A stretch of 64,000 nt of DNA from NCBI GenBank assembly GCA_047602415.1, contig JASGHH010000001.1, positions 3,671,166 to 3,735,165 of the forward strand, in the 5' to 3' direction. The notes beneath the pieces are model-generated. The model was not told the origin of the DNA and did not search any database. It saw only the letters and a program-made list of their open reading frames with translations. Position 1 is the first letter of the stretch; each line of letters starts with the position of its first letter. Source of the stretch: Myxococcaceae bacterium (GTDB taxonomy: Bacteria > Myxococcota > Myxococcia > Myxococcales > Myxococcaceae). This document shows positions 26,620 to 40,298 of the stretch, one piece after another. Position numbers and translations under genes: made by a program.

Positions 26620-28758
26620 GAGCGGTCGCGCTGCTCGTCGTCGCCGCGCTGAGCGGTTGCATCGACTTCGACCAGTCGAAGCGCGTGTTCTGCGAGAAAC
26701 ACCCGGGGCTGGGAGATTGCCCGGGCGACGGCGGTGCCGGCGGAGGCGCGGGTGGCGGCGGCGTCTCGGGAGGTGGTGCGGGCGGTGGCGCGGCGGGCGG
26801 CGGAAGCGTCGGAGGAGGAACCGGTGGTGGCGGCGGTGGCGGAGGCGCGGCTCCGATGTGCACCATCACCAGCATCGAAGGTGACGGCGGAGCCAACGTC
26901 GCCGCCCCGACCAATCAGCAAATCGGAGCTGCTGCAGGGAACTGCCCCGCGTTGGGACCGGTCGGCTCGGCGATCTACGTGTCGAGCGACGGCGGCAGCG
27001 ACACGAACGACGGTGGGCTCGCATCACCGCTGAGGACGATCACCGCCGGGCTCGCGGCTGCGAGCGCGATCGGCGCGAGCGAGGTGCGGGTCTGCTCCGG
27101 CACCTACCGTGAACGGGTGCAGATGACCGATCCCGCGGTGTCGCTGCGCGGCGGCTTCGACTGCGTCACCGGGCAGCGCATCGCCGGCTGCTTCGATCCG
27201 TCGCTGCCGAGGGGCTTTCCTGCGCCGAACCTCGGTGCGTTGGCCACCACCATCATCGACCCCGGCGATGCGGGCACCGGCGTGGTGACGACCGTTTCGA
27301 TCGCGTTCACCGGAGGCGCTGCCGGCTCCAACCCCCAGCTCGATTTCTTCACCATCGTCGGCTCCGACGGAGGCGACGAGACGCGGGCGGTCGACGTGAG
27401 CGTCGGCCTGGGCGTGCGACCGGTGATCTCCAACAACGCGATCATCGGCGGCTCGACGTCGTGTCAGCTCAACCAGTGCAACGTCGGGCTGCGGAGCTCA
27501 GGCGGGAACATGATGGTGGAGTGGAACTTCATCAGCGGCGGCGCGGGCACCGGCGGCAACGTCGACTGCGCCAGCTGCGGCGTGGTGGTGGCCGGTGACG
27601 CTTTGCTGCAGCTGAACAACAACCTGATCGAAGGTGGCACCGGCAGCGTGACGGCCGGAACCGGGTCGGTGGGCCTGCTGCTCGCAGCGACCACCGCGCT
27701 GACCGGGCCTCTGTCGTTGAAACTGAATGACATCAGCGGCGGAGCGGGCACCTGCACCGCTCCAGAGTGCAGTGGCACCATCGGGGTCGAGGTGCTGCCC
27801 CAAGACACCGCTGCGGTCCTCTTGGAGCGGAACCAGATCTTCGGCACCCGGCCCGATGTTCGCGGCGGTGGAGCTTCCACTGGCGTGCTGGTGGCGACGC
27901 CGGGCACGGTGCAGGTCAGCGGCAACAAGATCTTCTCGGGGCTCAGCAGCGACACCGGCTCGTTGCTGGTGGGCGTCGACCTCGAGGCCGCCGGCGGGCA
28001 GTTCGAGGTGACGAACAACATGATCTACGCGGGCGACCCCTTGGGGCCGACCACGCTCGCGCCGGCAGGGTTGGTCTATGGCGATCATCAGACCGGTGGC
28101 AGCGTGATGGTCGCGCACAACGCGATCGTCGCGATCGGGTCCTCAGGCGCCTCGGCGGTGCAGGTGCGCGCCGACTCTTCGCGAAGCACGGGCACGCTCG
28201 ACCTCATCGACAACATCCTCGCGTCGAACGGGGTGATCAACACCACGGCGATCGAGCTCGGCCAGTGCCCTTCGGCGGCCCCCGTGCTCAAGGTGCGCAG
28301 CAATCTCTTCGCAGGCGTCTTTTACGCGGCCACGTACACGGGCGGCGGCGCCTGCCTCGCTCCGCCGGTCATGCTCCTGCCGTCGACGTTCCAGATGTGG
28401 GCGGGCGTCGGCACCGTGATGAATCAGAATCCTCGAAAACTCCGAATACATCGTCGGGTGCTCGACCACGGACGGATGTGTATGCCGGCCGGCGTGCGTG
28501 CAAGCTGGCGGCTGCCTCGTCGATCTGTTCGGCCCGCAGGACGCAGGCACGTTCGGTCTCGACGAGCTCTTCCGGCCGGGCCAGTGGAACCTCGACCCCA
28601 ACCCGGCGTTCGGCCCACCCTCGTGCAATCTGGTCCACGGCTACGACGACACGGCGGCCGTGCCTTACGACATCTATGGCTATGGGCGCACCGTGCCGCC
28701 GGCCGTCGGGCCGGTGGAGCTCAACGCCACGACCTGCGCGAACAGCGCGCCTCAGTAG
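26610..28758 (+). CDS. Lipoprotein with Gly-rich linker and right-handed parallel beta-helix (pectate-lyase-like) repeats; contains an apparent +1 frameshift near 28420-28423, and the C-terminal 112 aa are in another frame
   Basis: Lipobox LSGC. Repeated NNxI..G/beta-helix motifs. GC3 periodicity switches from frame 0 to frame 1 at about 28421. Confidence 0.6.
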
Positions 28759-28761
28759 CGG

Positions 28762-29494
28762 TCAGCCCTTCACGACCGGGACGCCAAGATCGCTGAGCGC
28801 CTTGGCGAGGTCGTCGATGTTGCTGAGAGGCAGGCTCCAGATTCTCAGCTCACCCGCTTTCGTCTGAAGCGCAAACGAGGTCTCCTTGTTCCGCCAGCTG
28901 TCGGTGAAGCTGACGAGCTTCAGCTCACGCAGGTACCACTGAGCCCGGTCGACGATCAGGCTACGCCGCGTGACGACCACGTTCATCGTCGCAGGGAAGA
29001 GCTTGAACGACGCCAGCAGAAGCACGAGTCCGCCCACAGGTGGCAGTGGCGACTCCAGAATCACTGCGAAAGGCATCGTCACTGCGATGCAGAGGAAGAC
29101 GCGGACACTGAGAATCGCCTCTCCAGTGTCTGGCGACGTAGCGGACGGGGAGGTTCTCGACCAGCCGCCGGACTTTGTGCTCTCGCGTGTCGACGTCGAC
29201 CGTCTCTCCAAGCCCGCGAAGCCGCAGATCGAGCGCCTCGCGAAACGCCGTCTGCGCCTTCATCAGCCTCGCGACGAGCTGCGTTTCATCGGGCTCACCC
29301 GCTTCAGCCCGCTTCGCAAATTGCCGCAGGACCGGTGCGAGGCTCACGGTGTTGTCCTTCAGGTCACGCCACTCCGAGCGCTGGTCCCACGCCGCATCGG
29401 CGAGCGACTGAGCCGCGGCTTCCCAATTCAACACCTCGGCTTCGACCAACTCGTAGGCGCCCTCGAGCTGAATTCTGAGGTCAGCTGCGCTCAT
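28762..29494 (-). CDS. Paralog A of the coiled N-domain/2-TM/PH-like membrane protein family; frameshifted near 29120-29140 (possible pseudogene or sequencing error)
   Basis: N-terminal part (MSAADLRIQLEGAYELVEAE...) in one frame, and the TM plus C-terminal domain (ILSVRVFLCIAVTMPFAVI...VVVTRRSLIVDRAQWYLRELKLVS) in another. Both are homologous to B and C. Confidence 0.5.
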
Positions 29495-30221
29495 CGCGCA
29501 CCTCCGCATCGCCAGAGACCACGACGCCCCGCGACCGGAGGGCCGCGGCGAGCTCGGCAGCCCGAGCCGGCGACATCAGCAGCTGCCGATACCGGCCGGC
29601 GGTGGTCTTCACGTCGACGCTCCGACCGCCACGGCCCCACTCTGCGACGTACACGGAGGCGAGGTCGCCGAATCGAATCGGAAGGTCGTCGGCGATCAGT
29701 ACCTTGTTCGTGACGCTGATCTTCGGCGCGATCGCACACTTGAGCGCGGCCCACCATGCTCCGAGCGTGACCACCGCCACTGCGGCAGCCGCGTAGCCTT
29801 CGAACACCAGGCAGACCGTGAGTCCGCTGATCAACACGGAGAGGCCAAACAGGTAGGAACGCAGATCGTGAACCAGTACGACAGGAAGGTGGCCGGCGAG
29901 GGCACTCACCTGCTCCCCTATCGATCCGTCGACGTGCTCTCCCAGCTCCCTCAATCGGCTCGCAAGATCGGCCCGGGCGCGCCGTTCGTCGCGTTCGAGC
30001 TTCTTCAGCAGCGACGCACACGGCTCGAGGCTGGCTTTGCGCGTCAGCGCGGCGACCGCGGCCAATTCGTCTGGGCTCAGATCGCGCAGCGAGATCCACC
30101 CCGCCGAGCGGTACCATTGGGAGCGTCGAAGTCCCCGAGCCGCCGCTGCGAAGCGCTCCTGCGCGGCATCGACCTGCTCGTACGCGCCCTCGAGCTGAAC
30201 CTTGAGGTCGTTCAGCTCCAC
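29481..30221 (-). CDS. Paralog B: N-terminal helical domain, two TM helices, C-terminal bPH_2/YdbS-like PH domain (inferred)
   Basis: GTG start at 30221 chosen by alignment with A and C (ELNDLKVQLEGAYEQVD). ATG 30377 would overlap paralog C by 165 nt in an Arg-rich frame. Confidence 0.55.
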   Translation of the reverse strand: MELNDLKVQLEGAYEQVDAAQERFAAAARGLRRSQWYRSAGWISLRDLSPDELAAVAALTRKASLEPCASLLKKLERDERRARADLASRLRELGEHVDGSIGEQVSALAGHLPVVLVHDLRSYLFGLSVLISGLTVCLVFEGYAAAAVAVVTLGAWWAALKCAIAPKISVTNKVLIADDLPIRFGDLASVYVAEWGRGGRSVDVKTTAGRYRQLLMSPARAAELAAALRSRGVVVSGDAEVRDERS

Positions 30222-31009
30222 CAGTTCCTCCGCATCCAGCGATCGAACCAATCGAGCTCGCTGTCGGGTACTGGCGGCGGCTCTTTGAACACCGGAGCCA
30301 CCGGGCACGAAGTCGCATGCACGCCTTCGGCAGAGAGCAGCTCGATCACATCGGTCAGCGGCGAGCCGAAGGTCCATCGATGAGCCTTGCCTCCGTCAGA
30401 CATCACGACCAGGACGTACCCGCCCGGCACCTGGCGCAGCGCCGCGCTGTCGAGCTGCTGGAATGGCGCCACGAAGTCGTTCACCACCAGAACACGCTGC
30501 GTGACGACCACTCGGGCCTTCACGCGCACGCTCAACAGTGCCAGGCCGACCGCTCCTGTTAACAAGACGAGCGCCCATGGCTGGAGGAAGGCCAGCGCGA
30601 CGCTGCCAACCCCGAGCAAGAGCGCGTGCAGCAACAACGCGGGACGCATGAATACGCGGGTGCACTGCAGCGGGAGGTGCTCTGCCAGCGCAGCCACCGA
30701 CGCCCTCAACCCGGCTCCGTCGACACCGCCAAAAGCTTTCACCCGCTCGCTCAGCACCTTCTCGAATGCGCCGCGCGCAGCCTGGTACTCGCGCAGCAAC
30801 GCCAGGCCCTCGGGCGACTCGCTCGCCTTCTTCTCGAGCGCGGCGACAGCCTCGGCTTCGCCCTCGGTCTCCTCCCCGGCCGTCACCCAGCCGCGCCGGC
30901 GGTCCCACTCTCCATCGCCGAGCTCCTGCAGCGCCGCGTTCCACCGCAGCGTCGCCTGCTCGACCCGCTCGAGCTTGCCCTCGAGCACGATGCGCAGATT
31001 CGAAACCAT
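30212..31009 (-). CDS. Paralog C of the same family
   Basis: ATG 31009 preceded by gagagg RBS. MVSNLRIVLEGKLERVEQ..., two TM helices, C-terminal VVVTQRVLVVNDF...VLVVMSDGG. Confidence 0.65.
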   Translation of the reverse strand: MVSNLRIVLEGKLERVEQATLRWNAALQELGDGEWDRRRGWVTAGEETEGEAEAVAALEKKASESPEGLALLREYQAARGAFEKVLSERVKAFGGVDGAGLRASVAALAEHLPLQCTRVFMRPALLLHALLLGVGSVALAFLQPWALVLLTGAVGLALLSVRVKARVVVTQRVLVVNDFVAPFQQLDSAALRQVPGGYVLVVMSDGGKAHRWTFGSPLTDVIELLSAEGVHATSCPVAPVFKEPPPVPDSELDWFDRWMRRNWWS

Positions 31010-31018
31010 GGCGCCTCT

Positions 31019-31054
31019 CGAAAAAGAAAGCCCCCTCCCGCTTTCGCGGGAGGG
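31019..31054 (-). terminator. Intrinsic terminator: 9-bp GC-rich stem (ccctcccgc/gcgggaggg), 4-nt loop, followed on the minus strand by ggcuuucuuuuucg
   Basis: Perfect hairpin plus U-tract 14 nt downstream of the flotillin stop. It abuts the RBS and ATG of paralog C. Confidence 0.6.
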
Positions 31055-31067
31055 AGCCTTCACACCG

Positions 31068-32933
31068 CTACTGCCGGCCGTTCACCGGAGCGGCAGCCAC
31101 CACCGGCGCCTTCGCGCCCGCGTCTGCCTTCTGCGCCACCGGGACGAGCAGCCGCCCCAGCATCGCGGTGGCCAGCCCATCGCTGCCACCACCCGACTGA
31201 ACCGCCACCTCGGGCACCAGCTTCACGTGGTGCTCGCCCAACGCAGTGGCCAGCTGCAGCGCCGAGTACGCGTCTTGGCCCATCGCCTCGACGCCGGCCT
31301 TGAAGGCCTCCGCCTTCGCCGCACCGACCACCTTCAGCTGCGCCGCCTCGGCCTCGCCCTTGATCCGCATCGCGTGGGCTTCCGCCTCGGCCTCCAACCG
31401 CACTCGCGCAGCCTGGCCCTTCGCCTGCTCGGCGGCCGCCAACGCGTTCTTCGCGCTGATCGCCACCATCTGCTCCGAGCGAACGACCTCACCCTGCATG
31501 TTCGCGATCGACGTCTCGCGCTCGAGCTGCTGGCGGTTGACCTGCGCCGCCCGCTGAACCTCGTACGTCCGCTGGAGCTCCTCGGCGATCTTCCGGTCGG
31601 TCTGAGTCTTCATCAGCTCCGCCGGAGGCACGATGTCGCCAATCAGGGTGTCGATGCACTCCACGTCGTACGCCTCGACCGCTTGCTTGATCGCGTCGAA
31701 CGCCTCCTTCTGGCGCTCACTGCGCGCCGAGAGGAACTCCAGCACCGTGTAGTGCTGCGCCGAGTTCCTGAAGTAGTTGGCCACCGTCGGCTGCAACACG
31801 TGATCGACCAGGTTCTGCATCGACCCCACCCGCGAGATGACCCGCGGCGCCGACTTCATCCCCACGTGAATGATCTCCGACACGTCCAGCGAGAAGCTGA
31901 ACCCGTCTTTGCTCCGCACCAGCACCGACGAGAGCTTCTCGTCGTAGTGATGCGCCTCCACGCGGTTCGCCCAGTTCAGGACGATGTTGGTCGTCGGTAC
32001 CAGCTCGACCTTCATCACCCTGGTGTTGATCGGGTGCTTGCCCGGGAGCAGCGGCTCGATCCACACGCCTTTGTGGCCCTTCGCCACCAGGTCGCCGTGA
32101 GTGAACTCATCGCCGCTCAGGTCGATGTGCTCCCGACCGACGTAGCTCACCACCACTCCGACGTAGCCGATCGGAACCTCGGTCATCGGAACCTGCTCGA
32201 CCTGCACGAACCAGGGGTTCAGGTTCCACGAGCCGGCAAGAAGCACCTGCTCCTGCAACCCGCGACACCCGGTCGCGTCGATGAAGGCCTGGCCACGCTG
32301 GAAGTTGTCGTGGCCCACCACTTCGGGCCCCGCCAGGTCTCCAGAGGGGATCGGCTTGCCATCGAGCGCGGTGACGATGCCCACCCGATCGGGCCTCACC
32401 TCGTAGACGGAGAGCTCCGCCTGCGAGACGTCGAAGTGATCGGCGTTGTGAGTCGTCACCACCTGAAACAGCGACGGGTTGATCCGGTAGGTGCCCGAGG
32501 TCAGAAAGGCGAGCTGACGCCCCTTCTCGCCGCCGTTCTTGAGGAACAGCCGCGCGTTCTGGAAGTCGTCGCACTCCACCTCCTGCCCCAGAATCCGCTC
32601 CGACGGAATCGCGTCTCCATCGGCCGCCACAACCAGCGCGATCTCACCCGGCCGCACCGTCAGCACCGGCACCTTGATCACCTTGTACTTCCAGCGCCAA
32701 AGCCCGAAGTGCCAACCTGGCGAGAGCATGTCGGCCTGGTAGCCGGCCTCTCCCTCGAGGGCGATCAGCCGCCCCGCGGGCAAAGACCGCCCGAACTTCT
32801 TCACCACCAGCCCCGACTCGTTCTCTTTGATCACCACCAGGCTCAGCCGGGTGACGAACCAGATCGCGAACGAAACCGCGAACGCGCCCGTCAGCACCCA
32901 GTGCTCCCTCAGTTGGTTCAATAGAAGCTCCAT
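31068..32933 (-). CDS. Flotillin-like SPFH/band-7 domain protein (YqiK/FloT-like), 621 aa
   Basis: N-terminal TM, SPFH domain, long Ala/Glu-rich coiled-coil (EAEAEAHAMRIKGEAEAAQLK). Confidence 0.85.
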   Translation of the reverse strand: MELLLNQLREHWVLTGAFAVSFAIWFVTRLSLVVIKENESGLVVKKFGRSLPAGRLIALEGEAGYQADMLSPGWHFGLWRWKYKVIKVPVLTVRPGEIALVVAADGDAIPSERILGQEVECDDFQNARLFLKNGGEKGRQLAFLTSGTYRINPSLFQVVTTHNADHFDVSQAELSVYEVRPDRVGIVTALDGKPIPSGDLAGPEVVGHDNFQRGQAFIDATGCRGLQEQVLLAGSWNLNPWFVQVEQVPMTEVPIGYVGVVVSYVGREHIDLSGDEFTHGDLVAKGHKGVWIEPLLPGKHPINTRVMKVELVPTTNIVLNWANRVEAHHYDEKLSSVLVRSKDGFSFSLDVSEIIHVGMKSAPRVISRVGSMQNLVDHVLQPTVANYFRNSAQHYTVLEFLSARSERQKEAFDAIKQAVEAYDVECIDTLIGDIVPPAELMKTQTDRKIAEELQRTYEVQRAAQVNRQQLERETSIANMQGEVVRSEQMVAISAKNALAAAEQAKGQAARVRLEAEAEAHAMRIKGEAEAAQLKVVGAAKAEAFKAGVEAMGQDAYSALQLATALGEHHVKLVPEVAVQSGGGSDGLATAMLGRLLVPVAQKADAGAKAPVVAAAPVNGRQ

Positions 32934-33095
32934 GACCCACTCCTTTCGTTGTGGAGGGGTGCAAGAGCATCAGCGGTGCCACCCCCCAAACGGCCGTGGT
33001 CAGGTCACCGGCGGTCGCGCCCCGTGATTCAACTGTCGGCAAACGCGATTTGAATCACGCCGAGCCAGAGGCGGGGTTGGGAGTACAGTGCGCCC

Positions 33096-33299
33096 ATGCC
33101 GGACGAACCGAAGAAGCCGCCTCCGCCGCCGAATCCGTTCCTGGCGAACATTCTCAGAAACGCCAAGGCGGCACCGAAGCACGGCGTCGCCGCGGCCGGG
33201 CTCGAGACGCGGGTGTGCAGCAAGTGCGGCGCCGCCCGGGCCGAAGGCTCCGACCTCACCGTCTGCGAGTACTGCGGCGGCTCGTTCAAGGAGAGCTGA
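33096..33299 (+). CDS. Small zinc-ribbon protein (CSKCG...CEYCG)
   Basis: 67 aa. Stop overlaps the next ATG (ATGA). Confidence 0.5.
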   Translation: MPDEPKKPPPPPNPFLANILRNAKAAPKHGVAAAGLETRVCSKCGAARAEGSDLTVCEYCGGSFKES

Positions 33300-34048
33300 T
33301 GGCGGAGGACCCGCGCGCGCGGTGGTCGGCGTTTCTGGAGAAGATCGAGGCCCGCCACGGCGAGCTGCTCACGGGCGCCCGGGAGTCGCTGCCGGGGCTG
33401 GTGCCCGACTCCGGCTACGAGCTGTCGCCGTTCAGCAATGCGCTCACCGCGATTCGAACCCAGTGCATCGGGCTGTCGCAGAAGATCGATCAGACCTGGT
33501 CGCAGTCGGCGTGCGCTGCGATCGAGGGCGCCGGGCTCGACTCGAACGCCGAGCGGGCCAGGGGCGACGCGTGCTCCAAGCGCATGGCGCACGCGCTCAA
33601 GCGCGCCGAGGTCGAGATCTCCGCCGCGGCGGCGAACGTGGTGTGCGATCTGGCAAAGCAGACGCTGGCGAAAGACTTCAAGTGCACCCGCTGTGGCGCG
33701 CCGCTGAGCCCGAAGCAGAGCTTCTTTCGCTCGCATTACGTGCCCTGCCAGTTCTGCCAGTCGATGAACACCTTCGAGCCGGGCATGGTCGCCCGCCAGG
33801 TGGAGCACTTCGCGGTGCACGCGCTCGCCGAAGGAGCCGCGCTCGACGAGCAGCTCGCGTTTCTCGCCGGTGAAGAGCGGTACCGCGAGCGGCACTCGAC
33901 GGTGAGCAAGGAAGCGCTGGTCGCGCTCTACGAGGCCTACGTCGACGCCTACCTCGCCGAGCGGGTCCGGCTGCTGCCTGATCTGGCGGCCGATCTCGAC
34001 AAAGATCGACACGCGAAAGTGAGCGCATTCGTTTACAGCATCGCCTGA
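33299..34048 (+). CDS. Hypothetical protein with C-terminal zinc ribbon (CTRCG...CQFC)
   Basis: 249 aa, high GC3 frame. N-terminal extension from 32951 rejected. Confidence 0.55.
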   Translation: MAEDPRARWSAFLEKIEARHGELLTGARESLPGLVPDSGYELSPFSNALTAIRTQCIGLSQKIDQTWSQSACAAIEGAGLDSNAERARGDACSKRMAHALKRAEVEISAAAANVVCDLAKQTLAKDFKCTRCGAPLSPKQSFFRSHYVPCQFCQSMNTFEPGMVARQVEHFAVHALAEGAALDEQLAFLAGEERYRERHSTVSKEALVALYEAYVDAYLAERVRLLPDLAADLDKDRHAKVSAFVYSIA

Positions 34049-34070
34049 CGTTGCCTACCGTCCGGCCACC

Positions 34071-35252
34071 ATGACCGATCCCAAGACGAGCAAGGCGTTG
34101 GCGGATGCGCAGCGCGCCAAAGAAGCGAACCAGCGCGAGCGTGACGCGAAGATCGCCGAGGCGATCGAGGGCCCGCGGTACCACAAGTTTTCCGACTACG
34201 ACAACAGCCCCCAGGGCCAGAAGGCGATCTCTCAAGGCATCGCCAACAAGCAGGGCGCGCCGTACGACTACCTGAAGTCGAAGGGCGCCAACTTCAACTG
34301 GCCCGACCTCGACCCGGCGTCGATCGGCAACCTCGAGCCCTGGCTCTGCTACGCCAAGGGCGGAGGGTGGAAGGACCTCAACGCGGTCGCCAACGGCGCC
34401 GAGCGCCGGGGCATGGCGGCCTACCGCACCCTGGGCGACGTCGAAGGCCCGACCTTCAACAAGGTGATCGACGACTCGACCTTCGCGCTGATCTCCAAGA
34501 TGCAGGCGATGTCTGACGCCGAGCTGGCGACGCAGGGGCCGCCGGCCGGTCTGAAGAAAGACGCGCGCTACAGCTACCGCGACTACCTGATGGGCATCAA
34601 GCTGGAGTGCGAAGACGCGCTCCGCCGGGCCAACAAGAAGGGCCAGGCCGCGCTCGACGCCGCGATGGCGCACGACAAGAAGCAGATGGACGGGCACATC
34701 GCCGCCGCGAAGTCGGGCGGGCTGCTCGACCCGGTGCAGGGCGTGACGATGGAAGACTGGGCGGGCGCGAACGCGAAGCTCGCCGCCGGTGAGCCGCTCG
34801 CCAACGTGCTCAAGGTGCTGCAGATCGAGAAGCCGGCGTGGGACGCGATCTCCGCGGAGTGGATGGGCCGGATGTCGCGCGACACCACCTTCGCCATCTC
34901 CACCGTCTACGGCGGCGCGTTCACCAACCCGAACATCGGCCGGTTCGCGGCGGGCGGGGGCGCGGCTGCTCCGAAACCCGCGGCAGGTGGAGCGCTCGAC
35001 AAGGTGCTGGGCGACTTCGAGCTCTACGTGAAGATCATGACCCACCAGAGCGTGGGCGCGGGCCAGGGCCTCGACGCGGCCGCGATTCTGAAGAAGTACG
35101 GCCTCAGCGTTGCCGACTGGGCCAAGGTCGGCATGCACTGGGGCACCAAGATGACCACCGACATGGCGCTCGCCACCAAGATGGGCGGGCTGATGCAGAA
35201 GTACACCGCCGAGCTGTCGGCTCCGGGCGCGGGCGACGACATCAACTTCTGA
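34071..35252 (+). CDS. Hypothetical cytoplasmic protein, 393 aa
   Basis: Clean ORF with RBS-like upstream. Stop overlaps the cytochrome ATG (ATGA). Confidence 0.55.
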   Translation: MTDPKTSKALADAQRAKEANQRERDAKIAEAIEGPRYHKFSDYDNSPQGQKAISQGIANKQGAPYDYLKSKGANFNWPDLDPASIGNLEPWLCYAKGGGWKDLNAVANGAERRGMAAYRTLGDVEGPTFNKVIDDSTFALISKMQAMSDAELATQGPPAGLKKDARYSYRDYLMGIKLECEDALRRANKKGQAALDAAMAHDKKQMDGHIAAAKSGGLLDPVQGVTMEDWAGANAKLAAGEPLANVLKVLQIEKPAWDAISAEWMGRMSRDTTFAISTVYGGAFTNPNIGRFAAGGGAAAPKPAAGGALDKVLGDFELYVKIMTHQSVGAGQGLDAAAILKKYGLSVADWAKVGMHWGTKMTTDMALATKMGGLMQKYTAELSAPGAGDDINF

Positions 35253-36199
35253 TGTTTCAGGCGGTCGCGTTCATTCTCGCGGCGAGCCCGCTGCTGTTCG
35301 GCGAGGCGCGCGCTCCGTTGCCGGTGGAGGCCGACTCCACCGCGCAGCAGTGCGGCGTCTGTCACGCCGAGGCGCTCGAGAAGTGGCAGCACTCGATGCA
35401 CGCTCTCGCCACCAGCAACGAGCTGTACGTCGTCTCGCACCGCCGCGAGCCGATGAAGTGGTGCGACGACTGCCACGCGCCCAACCGCCTCGGTGAGCAG
35501 GGCAAAGCCGAAGGCGTGTCGTGCGCGGCCTGTCACGTGCGGGCCGGCGTGGTGCTCACCGCGCATGCACCGACCAGGAAGGGCCAGGAGTGCCACCCGA
35601 TGCGGGAGGAGCCGGCGCTGGCGGGCAACCAGGTCTGCGCCGAGTGCCACCAGTTCAACTTTCCCGCCGGGCGGGCAGATCCCGTTCGGTACGGCCCGTG
35701 GCCGATGCAGAACACTGCCGAGGAGTCGAAGGGCGCCGCGTGTGGCAGCTGTCACGATGCGCATTCGCCGAACGGAGCCCACGACGTCGAGGCGCTGCGC
35801 AAAGCGATCGTCGCCACGGCCTCTCGGGACGGGGACGCGGTGAAGGTGCGGGTGTCGACGGTGGGCGTGAGCCATCACCTGCCGACCGGAGATCCCAACC
35901 GGCGCATTCGCGTCGAGCTCTGCTCCGACGAGTCGTGCCTGGGCGCGGTGGCGTCACGCGAGCTGGAGCGCCGGGCGCAGGTCTCTGGCGATTCCTGGCG
36001 CATCTCGAGCGACACCACCGTCGGGCCGAGCGGTCTCACCCTCACCTTTCCCGGTGTGCCCGAGGTTCAGTGGGTGCGTCTGAGTTACCGGTACGCCGCG
36101 CGGAGCAACGAGAACGCGCTCGCTCCGGAGCAGGTCGAAGCCTGGTTGAACACGATTCCAATCAAGCCCGAGGTCGGGGCTGTCGGGGGTGCGCGATGA
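35252..36199 (+). CDS. Periplasmic pentaheme c-type cytochrome
   Basis: Signal peptide MFQAVAFILAASPLLFGEARA. Five CxxCH motifs (CGVCH, CDDCH, CAACH, CAECH, CGSCH). Confidence 0.75.
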   Translation: MFQAVAFILAASPLLFGEARAPLPVEADSTAQQCGVCHAEALEKWQHSMHALATSNELYVVSHRREPMKWCDDCHAPNRLGEQGKAEGVSCAACHVRAGVVLTAHAPTRKGQECHPMREEPALAGNQVCAECHQFNFPAGRADPVRYGPWPMQNTAEESKGAACGSCHDAHSPNGAHDVEALRKAIVATASRDGDAVKVRVSTVGVSHHLPTGDPNRRIRVELCSDESCLGAVASRELERRAQVSGDSWRISSDTTVGPSGLTLTFPGVPEVQWVRLSYRYAARSNENALAPEQVEAWLNTIPIKPEVGAVGGAR

Positions 36200-36999
36200 G
36201 ACGTTGGGTCTGGTTACTTCTGCTGTGGAGTGCGCCGGCGTTCGCCGGTCGAGTCGAGCTCGACGACGATGACCTCCAGAGCGCTCTCGGGTGGACCCAG
36301 GACAGCCGATACTTCGCGTGGGCGGGCCAGAAGAGCTGGGGCTACTGGGACGTCTCGACGGCGTCGGCGAAGCAATTCCAGGATCAGAGCGGCAAGGACA
36401 AGTGGCTCGAAGCGCACCCTCTGGCGCCCAAGAGAACAGGCCGCAAAGGCCCCAATGGAGCGATCGCCGAGGTGGTGATCACCAAGAACGATCGCCCTGG
36501 CAAGTGGGACGAGAAGAAGGCGGAGTGGACCCCCGAGGGCTACGCGGGCTCCGAGCTTCGGGTCTCGCGCGGAGGCAAGAGCTACATCTCCGTCGACTGG
36601 TTCTCGAGCGTGGACAACGTCACGCCGTATTGGTCGGAGGACGGCCGCCGGGTGGTCTGGGAGTTGTCCGAAGGCGGGGCGATGCGTCCCGTGCTCTACG
36701 ACACGCTCTGCTTCGGCACCGGCGGGTTTCCCCGGGTGCACGTCTTGGGTGACCCGACGCTGTTGAAGACGCGGGCGCCCGCGGTCAGGACTGCACTCGA
36801 CGCGCAGGGCTTCGTGACCCTCTACGTGGGGAAGTCGCTCAAGTCGCGCGACGCGACGGTCGTCTACGCGGCCGACGGGATGGAGGCGGAAGCAGCGAAG
36901 GCGGCGAAGGCCATCGGTGGCGCGAAGATCGAGAAGCTGAACTGGGTGGTCGACGCCGACCTGGTGGTGGCGCTCGGCGCCGACAAGGGGGTGAAGTGA
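36196..36999 (+). CDS. Secreted protein with C-terminal LytR_C-like domain (paralog of the next gene)
   Basis: Signal peptide MRRWVWLLLLWSAPAFAG. C-terminal ...AKAIGGAKIEKLNWVVDADLVVALGADKG. ATGA overlap with the cytochrome stop. Confidence 0.55.
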   Translation: MRRWVWLLLLWSAPAFAGRVELDDDDLQSALGWTQDSRYFAWAGQKSWGYWDVSTASAKQFQDQSGKDKWLEAHPLAPKRTGRKGPNGAIAEVVITKNDRPGKWDEKKAEWTPEGYAGSELRVSRGGKSYISVDWFSSVDNVTPYWSEDGRRVVWELSEGGAMRPVLYDTLCFGTGGFPRVHVLGDPTLLKTRAPAVRTALDAQGFVTLYVGKSLKSRDATVVYAADGMEAEAAKAAKAIGGAKIEKLNWVVDADLVVALGADKGVK

Positions 37000-37859
37000 T
37001 GAAGACGATCAGCGTGGCAGCGATGCTGTTCGCAAGCCTGGCGATGGCCGAGCCGTACCCCGAGTGGGTCGACGAGCTCCGCGGTGTGACGGCCGACGGC
37101 CGCTACCTGGTGTGGGTGGGCAAGGCCAGCGACGGAGAAACGGCCCTCACCTATCAAGTGGTCGAAGACATGATGCTCGGCAGCCACATTGCGTATCGGC
37201 AGGCAGACCCGGGCGATCTCCTCGACTCGCTGACACCGCAGGAGGCTCCTCATGGGCCTGCCGCGTTCCGGAAGTGGCTCGCGGCCCACCCGATCAAGCC
37301 GTTGATCGTCGACCGGAGCTCGCCCGACCACAAGCGGGTCGCCGACGTGGAAGTCAAAGCGGGAACAGGCTCCTGGGCCGGCGACTCCTTCAGCTCCGAC
37401 GGCACGGTGGGCTGCTCGCTGCTGGTGCGTCACGACGGAACGGCCGACGAGGTCGGGTTCTCCGGCAGCGGAGACGCGGTCTCGGTCGCTTGGTCTCCCG
37501 ATGGCAAGCACACCATCTGGGTCGTGCACCGCCGCGGCCGCTCGATCCGTGACGAACCCTCCGACGAGTTGGTGATCGGCACCGACGGCAGCCCGGCGGT
37601 CGCGGTGTTGGCGCCGAGGGCGAAGATGGGCCCCGCGAAGGACGTCGCCGAGAAGCTGGCCAAGGCCGGCTTCGAGGTGGGTTCGCTCGCGCCGATGATG
37701 AAGCCGCGCGACAAGAGCGTGGTGTTCGGCGCCAAGAACCAGCTCGAGCTGGCGAAGAAGGTCGCCGCTGCCGTCCCCGGCGGCGCCACCGTCGAGGCGC
37801 TCACCTGGCACACGCCCTTCGACGTGGTGGTGGCGCTTGGGCCCGACGCGCTGAAGTAG
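36999..37859 (+). CDS. Secreted protein with C-terminal LytR_C-like domain
   Basis: Signal peptide MKTISVAAMLFASLAMA. C-terminal AKDVAEKLAKAGFEVGSL...VEALTWHTPFDVVVALGPD. ATGA overlap with the upstream stop. Confidence 0.6.
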   Translation: MKTISVAAMLFASLAMAEPYPEWVDELRGVTADGRYLVWVGKASDGETALTYQVVEDMMLGSHIAYRQADPGDLLDSLTPQEAPHGPAAFRKWLAAHPIKPLIVDRSSPDHKRVADVEVKAGTGSWAGDSFSSDGTVGCSLLVRHDGTADEVGFSGSGDAVSVAWSPDGKHTIWVVHRRGRSIRDEPSDELVIGTDGSPAVAVLAPRAKMGPAKDVAEKLAKAGFEVGSLAPMMKPRDKSVVFGAKNQLELAKKVAAAVPGGATVEALTWHTPFDVVVALGPDALK

Positions 37860-37874
37860 GTACATTCGCCGCCG

Positions 37875-38480
37875 ATGGCCGACGAAGCCGACTACCTGGT
37901 CAGCGCCGCCTACGTCGACGAGATGCTCAAGCCGATCAAAGCGGCCGGGCACTTCGAGGCGTTGCTGGCCGAGCTCGGCCCGCGAACGAGCCAGATGGTC
38001 CTCCAGCCGTGGAGCGAACCGTTCCACCCGGCGGCGCTCACCGAATCGCTCGGCGAGCACATCGTGAAGATCGCCGGCGAGGAGTTCTACGCCGAGATGA
38101 CCTACCTCACGGTGAAGAACAAGTTCGGGCCGATTCTGCTGCCGCTGATGTCGACCACGGTGAAGAAGGGCTCGCCCGCCGGCTTCTTCAGCCGCCTCGA
38201 GGGCCTGGTCGACGCCGCGATCAAAGGCGTCACCATGCGCTGGGACAAGAAGTCGGAGCTCAACGGCACCCTCTGGGTGTTCTACCCGCGGGTGGTGTCG
38301 CCGGTGGTGGAGCACAGCTGGCGCGGCGTGATTCGTTTCATCTACGAGCTCACCCAGCGGCCGGGAAAGGTCGACGCCTTTCAGATCACCGCCGCCGGCA
38401 ACGCGCTCGAGTACCGCTTGTCGTGGCCCGCGGCGGAAGAGCCGAAACCCGCCCCGCCGGCGCCTCCTCATAAAAAGTGA
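37875..38480 (+). CDS. Hypothetical protein, likely the myxobacterial paralogous DUF2378/TIGR02265-like family
   Basis: 201 aa. Architecture similar to the 57073..57705 gene in this window. Confidence 0.45.
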   Translation: MADEADYLVSAAYVDEMLKPIKAAGHFEALLAELGPRTSQMVLQPWSEPFHPAALTESLGEHIVKIAGEEFYAEMTYLTVKNKFGPILLPLMSTTVKKGSPAGFFSRLEGLVDAAIKGVTMRWDKKSELNGTLWVFYPRVVSPVVEHSWRGVIRFIYELTQRPGKVDAFQITAAGNALEYRLSWPAAEEPKPAPPAPPHKK

Positions 38481-40247: not shown

Positions 40248-40298
40248 GCAGACCGGCCGGCCGATCCGCAGGCGCAGACCGGCCGGCCAATCCGCAGG
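40248..40298. promoter_or_regulatory. Two tandem 25-bp direct repeats (gcagaccggccggccRatccgcagg, 24/25 identical) about 55-100 bp upstream of the sigma-54 activator gene; putative operator
   Basis: Read directly: copies at 40248-40272 and 40274-40298. Each has a central ccggccgg palindrome. Confidence 0.4.

Follow-up and report, generated by a model that had tools for sequence, protein, structure and literature searches.

Tandem paralogous genes for predicted membrane proteins behind a flotillin-type gene in a narrow clade of Myxococcaceae

Bacterial SPFH genes of the YuaG/YqiK group are normally paired with a gene for an NfeD protein, and NfeD-less cases are also known (PMC2636767). The soluble domain of NfeD is an OB-fold (PMC4208085). 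A second arrangement of small membrane proteins is that of YdbS, which consists of two transmembrane (TM) helices and one PH domain, and of YdbT, which consists of three such units (PMC8657885). Here we analyse a stretch of 64,000 nucleotides from a Myxococcaceae bacterium (assembly GCA_047602415.1, contig JASGHH010000001.1, positions 3,671,166 to 3,735,165; G+C content about 68%), referred to below as the window, in which a flotillin-type SPFH gene (minus strand, 32933..31068) is followed by three paralogous genes that we call C (31009..30212), B (30221..29481) and A (29494..28762). The four genes form one minus-strand unit, with a divergent gene on its upstream side and a convergent one at its other end. 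The arrangement is real but narrow and lineage-specific, and does not amount to a widespread new system. To the fuller reading, that it is a lineage-specific tandem expansion which is expressed by read-through and possibly flotillin-associated, we give about an even chance.

C, B and the corrected form of A are collinear over their full lengths and show 29–32% identity in pairwise BLASTP comparisons (E-values of 2e-13, 5e-11 and 3e-12), as an earlier sequence-only reading of this DNA had proposed when it described tandem, collinear paralogues of about 30% identity. That reading also assigned them to a family without a characterised member, and this was borne out: C, B and both halves of A had no match at E≤1 in Pfam or NCBIfam, none of 86 family members matched Pfam at family level, and a literature search returned nothing on the A/B/C family or on myxobacterial flotillin partners. 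The weak Pfam matches that we did see were to DUF3093 (7 of the 86 members, best E 1e-4) and, in one member each, to bPH_10, bPH_6, DUF2244, DUF5673 and DUF6232. Several of these are presumably TM-hairpin/PH-like families; the sporadic, sub-family-level matches to DUF3093, bPH_6, bPH_10, DUF2244 and DUF6232 leave the N-terminal helical domain of the paralogues uncovered.

An exhaustive HMMER profile search of 1.84 billion representative sequences (50%-identity clusters) retrieved 101 proteins at E≤1e-3, of which 28 reached E≤1e-10. About 85 were of typical length, and nearly all members found in this way measure 230–275 aa and match from end to end. Word-index searches with the family profiles returned four proteins only (B, C and two close relatives). 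A protein of 1846 aa (P0142) was considered as a member and rejected as a repeat-driven false positive. All family-positive genome records that carry organism titles are metagenome-assembled genomes (MAGs) of Myxococcaceae or Archangiaceae. The alignment of the 86 members shows no variation at E10 and G11 and almost none at R6, L9, E14, E17 and L108, and the N-terminal signature of the family reads R-I-x-L-E-G-x-L-E-x-V-E. Using a degenerate DNA pattern for R-I-x-L-E-G, true members were found at 5 of 119 loci among the matches listed, the other matches there being mostly unrelated and largely from Solirubrobacteraceae.

Each of C, B and A has a hydrophobic stretch of about 45 residues at approximately 120–165, enough for two TM helices. 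Lysine and arginine flank the pair on the outside, ahead of TM1 and past TM2, with none in the loop between them; this distribution together with the hydropathy points to an N-in/C-in orientation in which both soluble domains would be cytoplasmic. An AlphaFold2 model of C built on the 86-sequence alignment (predicted local distance difference test, pLDDT, 90; predicted template modelling score, pTM, 0.80) has helices over residues 4–109, a short strand at 116–120, TM helices at 123–142 and 146–160, six strands over 165–214, a helix at 219–227, a strand at 231–234 and a Trp-rich helix at 254–263. The TM hairpin would thus span 123–160 and the PH-like domain approximately 163–235. Foldseek agreed with the predicted fold at probabilities near 1.0, the E-values being weak. 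Model and hydropathy agree on the architecture that had been read from the sequence, a helical N-terminal domain, two TM helices and a PH-like C-terminal domain, and we conclude that the family is one of inner-membrane proteins with a predicted cytoplasmic helical bundle, TM hairpin and cytoplasmic PH-like domain.

Tails rich in Trp and Phe recur at the C-termini of the family, for example ELDWFDRWMRRNWWS in C (residues 250–265, 30215–30262) and GWTFFW, SWWW and QWWSE in other members; the C orthologue of the close relative L001 has lost its tail via a premature stop. Such tails may form a membrane-interface helix. The best PDB match of the family profile (positions 181–238) is the periplasmic N-domain of FtsH (4m8a) at a marginal E-value of 0.023, and Foldseek lists FtsH N-domains from FtsH-HflK/C complexes at probabilities of 0.85–0.92. 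FtsH is an SPFH client. We regard this likeness as a marginal, unverified lead, in which the membrane topology differs.

Among described proteins, those of the YdbS/YdbT type (bPH_2, PF03703, including DdE and DdF of the enterocin DD14 loci) share with the A/B/C proteins a TM hairpin with a small cytoplasmic PH-like domain immediately after it. In the A/B/C family, too, two TM helices lead directly into a predicted PH-like beta-sandwich with a C-terminal helix. The three units that are fused into one protein in YdbT are three separate genes at this locus. The A/B/C proteins differ further by an added helical bundle at the N-terminus, about 110 residues long and marked by an invariant LEG motif, by their restriction, among titled records, to the two families named above, and by the lack of a bacteriocin or transporter context. 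Searches with PF03703 gave no match at E≤1 for C, B and the halves of A, and none at E≤0.01 among the 86 members. Of the suggestion that the C-terminal domain is bPH_2/YdbS-like, the architecture therefore stands, as a predicted fold, and the relationship in sequence does not.

The comparison with NfeD partners (YuaF-FloT, YqiJ-YqiK and PH1510-stomatin) runs along similar lines. These are also small membrane proteins encoded in an SPFH transcription unit and equipped with a small beta-rich soluble domain, but their C-terminal domain is an OB-fold barrel where that of A/B/C is PH-like, and no Pfam or NCBIfam match to NfeD was found in the paralogues, nor a Pfam match in the 86 members. In addition, the A/B/C genes come after the SPFH gene, with a terminator in between, and their linkage to flotillin is found in one clade, whereas the linkage of NfeD to SPFH genes is ancient and widespread. 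The paralogues could be functional analogues of NfeD; they are not members of its family.

The first gene of the unit fits the description of a 621-aa flotillin-like SPFH protein encoded upstream on the same strand. Pfam Band_7 (PF01145) matches at residues 252–462 (85.4 bits against a cut-off of 23.6, E 6e-24), an N-terminal TM segment lies at residues 11–36, and the C-terminal region is rich in Ala and Glu, the same three elements that are found in YqiK/FloT proteins (COG2268). Between the membrane anchor and the SPFH domain lie about 200 residues without an assigned domain, and the distribution of Lys and Arg would place the bulk of the protein on the K/R-rich side of its anchor. It differs from YqiK/FloT in having no NfeD partner, in an apparent σ54-type promoter, and in scoring far below the cut-off of the FloT equivalog NF058507 (13.4 bits against 700). 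A search of PDB sequences with the flotillin gave no match. Many relatives share 70–78% identity with it (E≤1e-10 for 7,999 of 8,000 scored candidates); they come from Myxococcota and other soil bacteria, under source names such as YqiK, SPFH or flotillin family protein.

In a neighbour-joining tree A, B, C and their orthologues fall into one clade of 10 of the 89 leaves, with A-, B- and C-type subgroups. At all five loci of this clade where the upstream region is visible, a spacer of 58–60 nt separates the first paralogue from the gene before it, and at four of the five (the window, the relatives L001 and L002, and the contig JGI 3300047160) that gene was confirmed as an SPFH/flotillin gene. 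On the fifth contig (that of P0004) the spacer is the same and is followed by a C-type gene at 59% identity and then an overlapping gene; the upstream gene is a 56-aa fragment and is not counted as flotillin here. L001 carries C and, at 907–1100, what is left of a second copy, about 50 codons that start B-like, continue A-like and run antisense into a convergent gene; this remnant resembles a scar left in the array by recombination or deletion. L002 carries only a B-type and an intact A-type copy. On the JGI contig the Band_7 gene is followed by a C-type gene at 44% identity and an A-type gene, and the genes further downstream differ. The link to flotillin outlasts the loss of the surrounding synteny, and we take this as moderate evidence for functional coupling in the clade.

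Between flotillin and C lies a hairpin that begins 7 nt past the flotillin stop codon (31061..31021, minus strand). Its 16-bp stem, with 11 G-C pairs and a GAAA loop, is predicted to fold at −42 kcal/mol (z = −3.95) and is followed by CTTTCTTTTT, a G+C-rich stem-loop running directly into a U-run as in Rho-independent terminators. The terminator-like hairpin proposed at this place is thus confirmed, but its position needs adjusting: it had been put about 10 nt from the ribosome-binding site of C, and the T-run in fact stops 1–2 nt short of that site (GAGAGG), leaving 12 nt to the ATG. From the hairpin through these 12 nt the window, L001 and L002 have nearly the same sequence, although the first gene past the hairpin is C-type in the window and L001 and B-type in L002. 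Since a homologous hairpin also follows the flotillin stop codon in the MAG L003, where no paralogue comes after it, the terminator appears to be flotillin's own and older than the inserted paralogues. The comparison indicates that it was built for flotillin and not as an attenuator, and the proposal that it is a purpose-built device for setting stoichiometry does not hold. The interval between the terminator and C is too short for a promoter, so that read-through is the most likely source of the paralogue transcripts; a promoter within the 3' end of the flotillin gene is a possible other source.

The genes behind the terminator overlap, as had been claimed. The B start lies 10 nt inside the end of C, and the A start 14 nt inside the end of B, where GGAGG-N6 precedes the ATG. 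C and B are shorter than their longest open reading frames (ORFs), with true starts at ATG 31009 and GTG 30221. C (265 aa, stop 30214–30212, family hidden Markov model (HMM) E 7e-56) lies within the NCBI protein QM723_17075 (P0002), whose annotated start is a GTG further upstream, and B (246 aa, stop 29483–29481, family HMM E 6e-53, also seen by BLASTP) is identical to QM723_17070 (P0001).

A, unlike B and C, is not an intact ORF in the window. It is split by a one-nucleotide insertion: residues 1–127 are encoded by 29494..29114 and residues 128–243 in the +1 frame by 29112..28765, the alignment to the intact A orthologue of L002 (P0127) placing one extra T in GATTCTC at 29113/29114. The two halves match family HMM positions 1–121 and 130–237, the corrected gene runs to 243 aa from ATG 29494, and a public annotation of the same DNA divides A into proteins of 177 and 74 aa (P0128 and P0131). 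Of 13 window genes syntenic with L002, three, A included, are frameshifted. The others are a neighbouring beta-helix lipoprotein gene on the plus strand (28394–28438, at an A4 run) and a 296-aa gene on the minus strand (40265–40285), and both are intact in L002. Programmed +1 frameshifting in A was rejected on the same grounds, that two other syntenic genes are also frameshifted and that the A orthologue is intact. Three independent pseudogenes within 16 kb of a free-living genome would be unlikely, and one indel per about 5 kb is in keeping with a long-read assembly; the extra T is thus probably an artefact of assembly, and A is probably intact in the organism. C, B and A would then all probably be functional.

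The ratio of nonsynonymous to synonymous substitution rates (dN/dS) is 0.37 for C (window against L001) and about 0.2 for both halves of A (window against L002), which therefore points to purifying selection on the paralogues. Synonymous divergence (dS) changes sharply along the locus. Between the window and L002 it is 0.14 for flotillin and 0.21 for the upstream DUF6620 gene, and it climbs to 0.71 in the beta-helix gene and 1.2–1.5 in A. In the beta-helix gene the dS between L001 and L002 is only 0.07, yet their paralogue sets are not the same. This jump in dS and the differing sets point to recombination, for which unequal crossing-over among tandem copies is the mechanism that we infer, and the jump suggests a recombination boundary at the paralogue array (28762–35252, compared with L002).

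Taken in sequence, the history of the locus reads as follows. In one narrow Myxococcaceae clade a member of the family sits 12 nt past the older flotillin terminator, and tandem duplication gave the three diverged types C, B and A, whose copy number still changes, probably via recombination between copies. Their transcripts would most likely come from the flotillin promoter by read-through, at a level below that of flotillin, and the three genes would be translationally coupled to one another. By analogy with YdbS/YdbT-type proteins, their products may form homo- or hetero-oligomers on the cytoplasmic face of the inner membrane, the same face on which the flotillin SPFH domain is expected. In this clade the paralogues may act with or within a flotillin microdomain as accessory or client proteins, and the family overall would be flotillin-independent.

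Several observations weigh against this picture. The close relatives have lost copies, L001 retaining C and the remnant and L002 a B-type and an A-type gene. At 80 metagenomic loci of close flotillin relatives (65–75% identity; at least 800 bp of downstream sequence at 64 of them) there was no family member, nor was there one in L003 and L004 (Myxococcaceae/Archangium MAGs), where flotillin is monocistronic. Flotillin has no common downstream partner family, 37 of 66 called neighbours being convergent. Conversely, at the other family loci examined no SPFH gene occurs in the available sequence, some of these 8-kb loci ending near the member; the members there lie behind an SNF2 helicase gene, between fusA and rpsJ, as single genes or in tandem. 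The hairpin is older than the insertion, and with so strong a terminator in the way the flotillin promoter could contribute very little to the expression of the paralogues.

These results divide the proposal of a flotillin or microdomain module, which, as a linkage, holds within the A/B/C clade (four confirmed contigs) and fails elsewhere (none of 82 flotillin loci). The sequence-only reading had held that absence of the arrangement from related genomes, with paralogues unlinked to SPFH genes, would count against it, and outside the clade this is mostly what we found. With members unlinked to SPFH genes elsewhere and none at the 82 flotillin loci, a general SPFH module is unsupported. A tie to flotillin within the clade is plausible, the case for and against being roughly in balance, and is not a property of either family at large.

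The explanation that competes best with a flotillin-associated expansion is that the paralogues are neutral hitch-hikers. The family would then spread to the 3' ends of unrelated transcription units and duplicate there, and its position behind flotillin would reflect no more than common descent in a young clade. Much of what has just been listed speaks for this, namely that the contexts of other members are mutually unrelated (SNF2 helicase, fusA/rpsJ, alone, or tandems without an SPFH gene in view), that no other flotillin locus among the 82 carries a member, that the terminator is older than the insertion, and that copies are readily lost in L001 and L002. Purely neutral carriage is nevertheless difficult to square with the dN/dS values of 0.2–0.37, which indicate selection on the proteins, with the lack of space for an independent promoter, and with the persistence of the link between flotillin and a C-type gene, including its 60-nt spacer, in a relative whose C-type protein is only 44% identical and whose downstream genes are others. 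We consider it possible, if rather unlikely.

A stronger claim than ours would make A, B and C a new dedicated class of flotillin partners that replaces NfeD on the SPFH cage, with the terminator reused as a fixed-ratio attenuator that would supply a few hetero-trimeric C/B/A units per flotillin oligomer. We find this unlikely.

Quite improbable, in our estimate, is a YdbS/YdbT-like resistance, export or immunity complex directed at a membrane-active compound, for which the variation in copy number would be the trace of an arms race. The building block is indeed that of YdbS (two TM helices and a PH domain) and of YdbT (three units), and homologues of these proteins are needed for the export of leaderless bacteriocins (PMC8657885). 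Copy number (one, two or three) and divergence do vary among close relatives, and one distant member adjoins a PIN/Phd toxin-antitoxin pair. Such a role would, however, leave unexplained that there is no bPH_2 match, that the operon contains no bacteriocin, toxin or transporter gene, that the other contexts are housekeeping ones, and that dN/dS stays below 0.4 with no sign of diversifying selection. When PADLOC models were run against the paralogues the sole match was at chance level (E 0.038), and the defence or resistance role that had been floated for the locus gained no support. That the three genes behind a monocistronic flotillin gene are just pseudogenes in decay or noise in the annotation is very improbable, for although A is frameshifted in the window, L001 has a truncated remnant and a strong terminator lies upstream, the genes are under purifying selection, neither B nor C is disrupted, invariant motifs and a high-confidence predicted fold mark the family as conserved, and the two further frameshifted genes syntenic with L002 (28394–28438 and 40265–40285) point to assembly error.

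Upstream of the unit, a putative σ54-type −24/−12 element, TGGCACcgctgATGC, lies 34 nt 5' of the flotillin ATG (32981..32967, minus strand). It is the sole match with one mismatch to TGGCAC-N5-TTGC in the window, and its GG-N10-GC core is conserved in L002, L003 and L004, and thus in four genomes counting the window. Further upstream an inverted repeat, GATTCAA-N17-TTGAATC (33056..33026, minus strand), is a candidate site for an enhancer-binding protein; it is conserved in L002 and recognisable in L003 and L004, and in the latter two a gene for a σ54 activator lies divergently upstream of flotillin. No σ70-like promoter was found in 28500–33400. The conservation of element and repeat and the activator gene in L003 and L004 argue that the flotillin unit is probably under the control of this predicted σ54 promoter.

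The surroundings of family members in other genomes are varied. At one locus (L124, 2226–6241) the gene of the member P0192 and the end of a gene for a 1081-aa SWIM/SNF2 helicase share 4 nt, and a PIN/Phd toxin-antitoxin pair, an SMC-like ATPase and a PP2C phosphatase follow, an arrangement present in six contigs. At another (L131, 6001–6801, MAG GCA_044225205.1) the member sits within a ribosomal-protein operon between fusA, which encodes EF-G, and rpsJ, an odd place for a lineage-specific membrane protein. Elsewhere we see a solitary member (L132), a tandem pair near BolA and glutaredoxin genes (L133) and a tandem triplet (L019). In the window itself, a segment of about 2.6 kb (35252–37875) is missing from the syntenic L002 contig; it holds an ORF with several CxxCH haem-binding motifs (in the frame of 34838..36199) and a second ORF at 35521..36999.

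Current views of bacterial flotillins and their partners are not overturned by these results: the flotillin linkage is clade-specific, and the function of the paralogues is inferred from sequence and model. What the locus adds is a family defined outside the Pfam and NCBIfam models, with a confident predicted fold and an invariant N-terminal motif that could guide mutagenesis. It also illustrates how insertion behind a terminator already in place can turn a gene into a read-through cistron, and it is a natural setting in which to ask whether bacterial flotillins take on partners besides NfeD.

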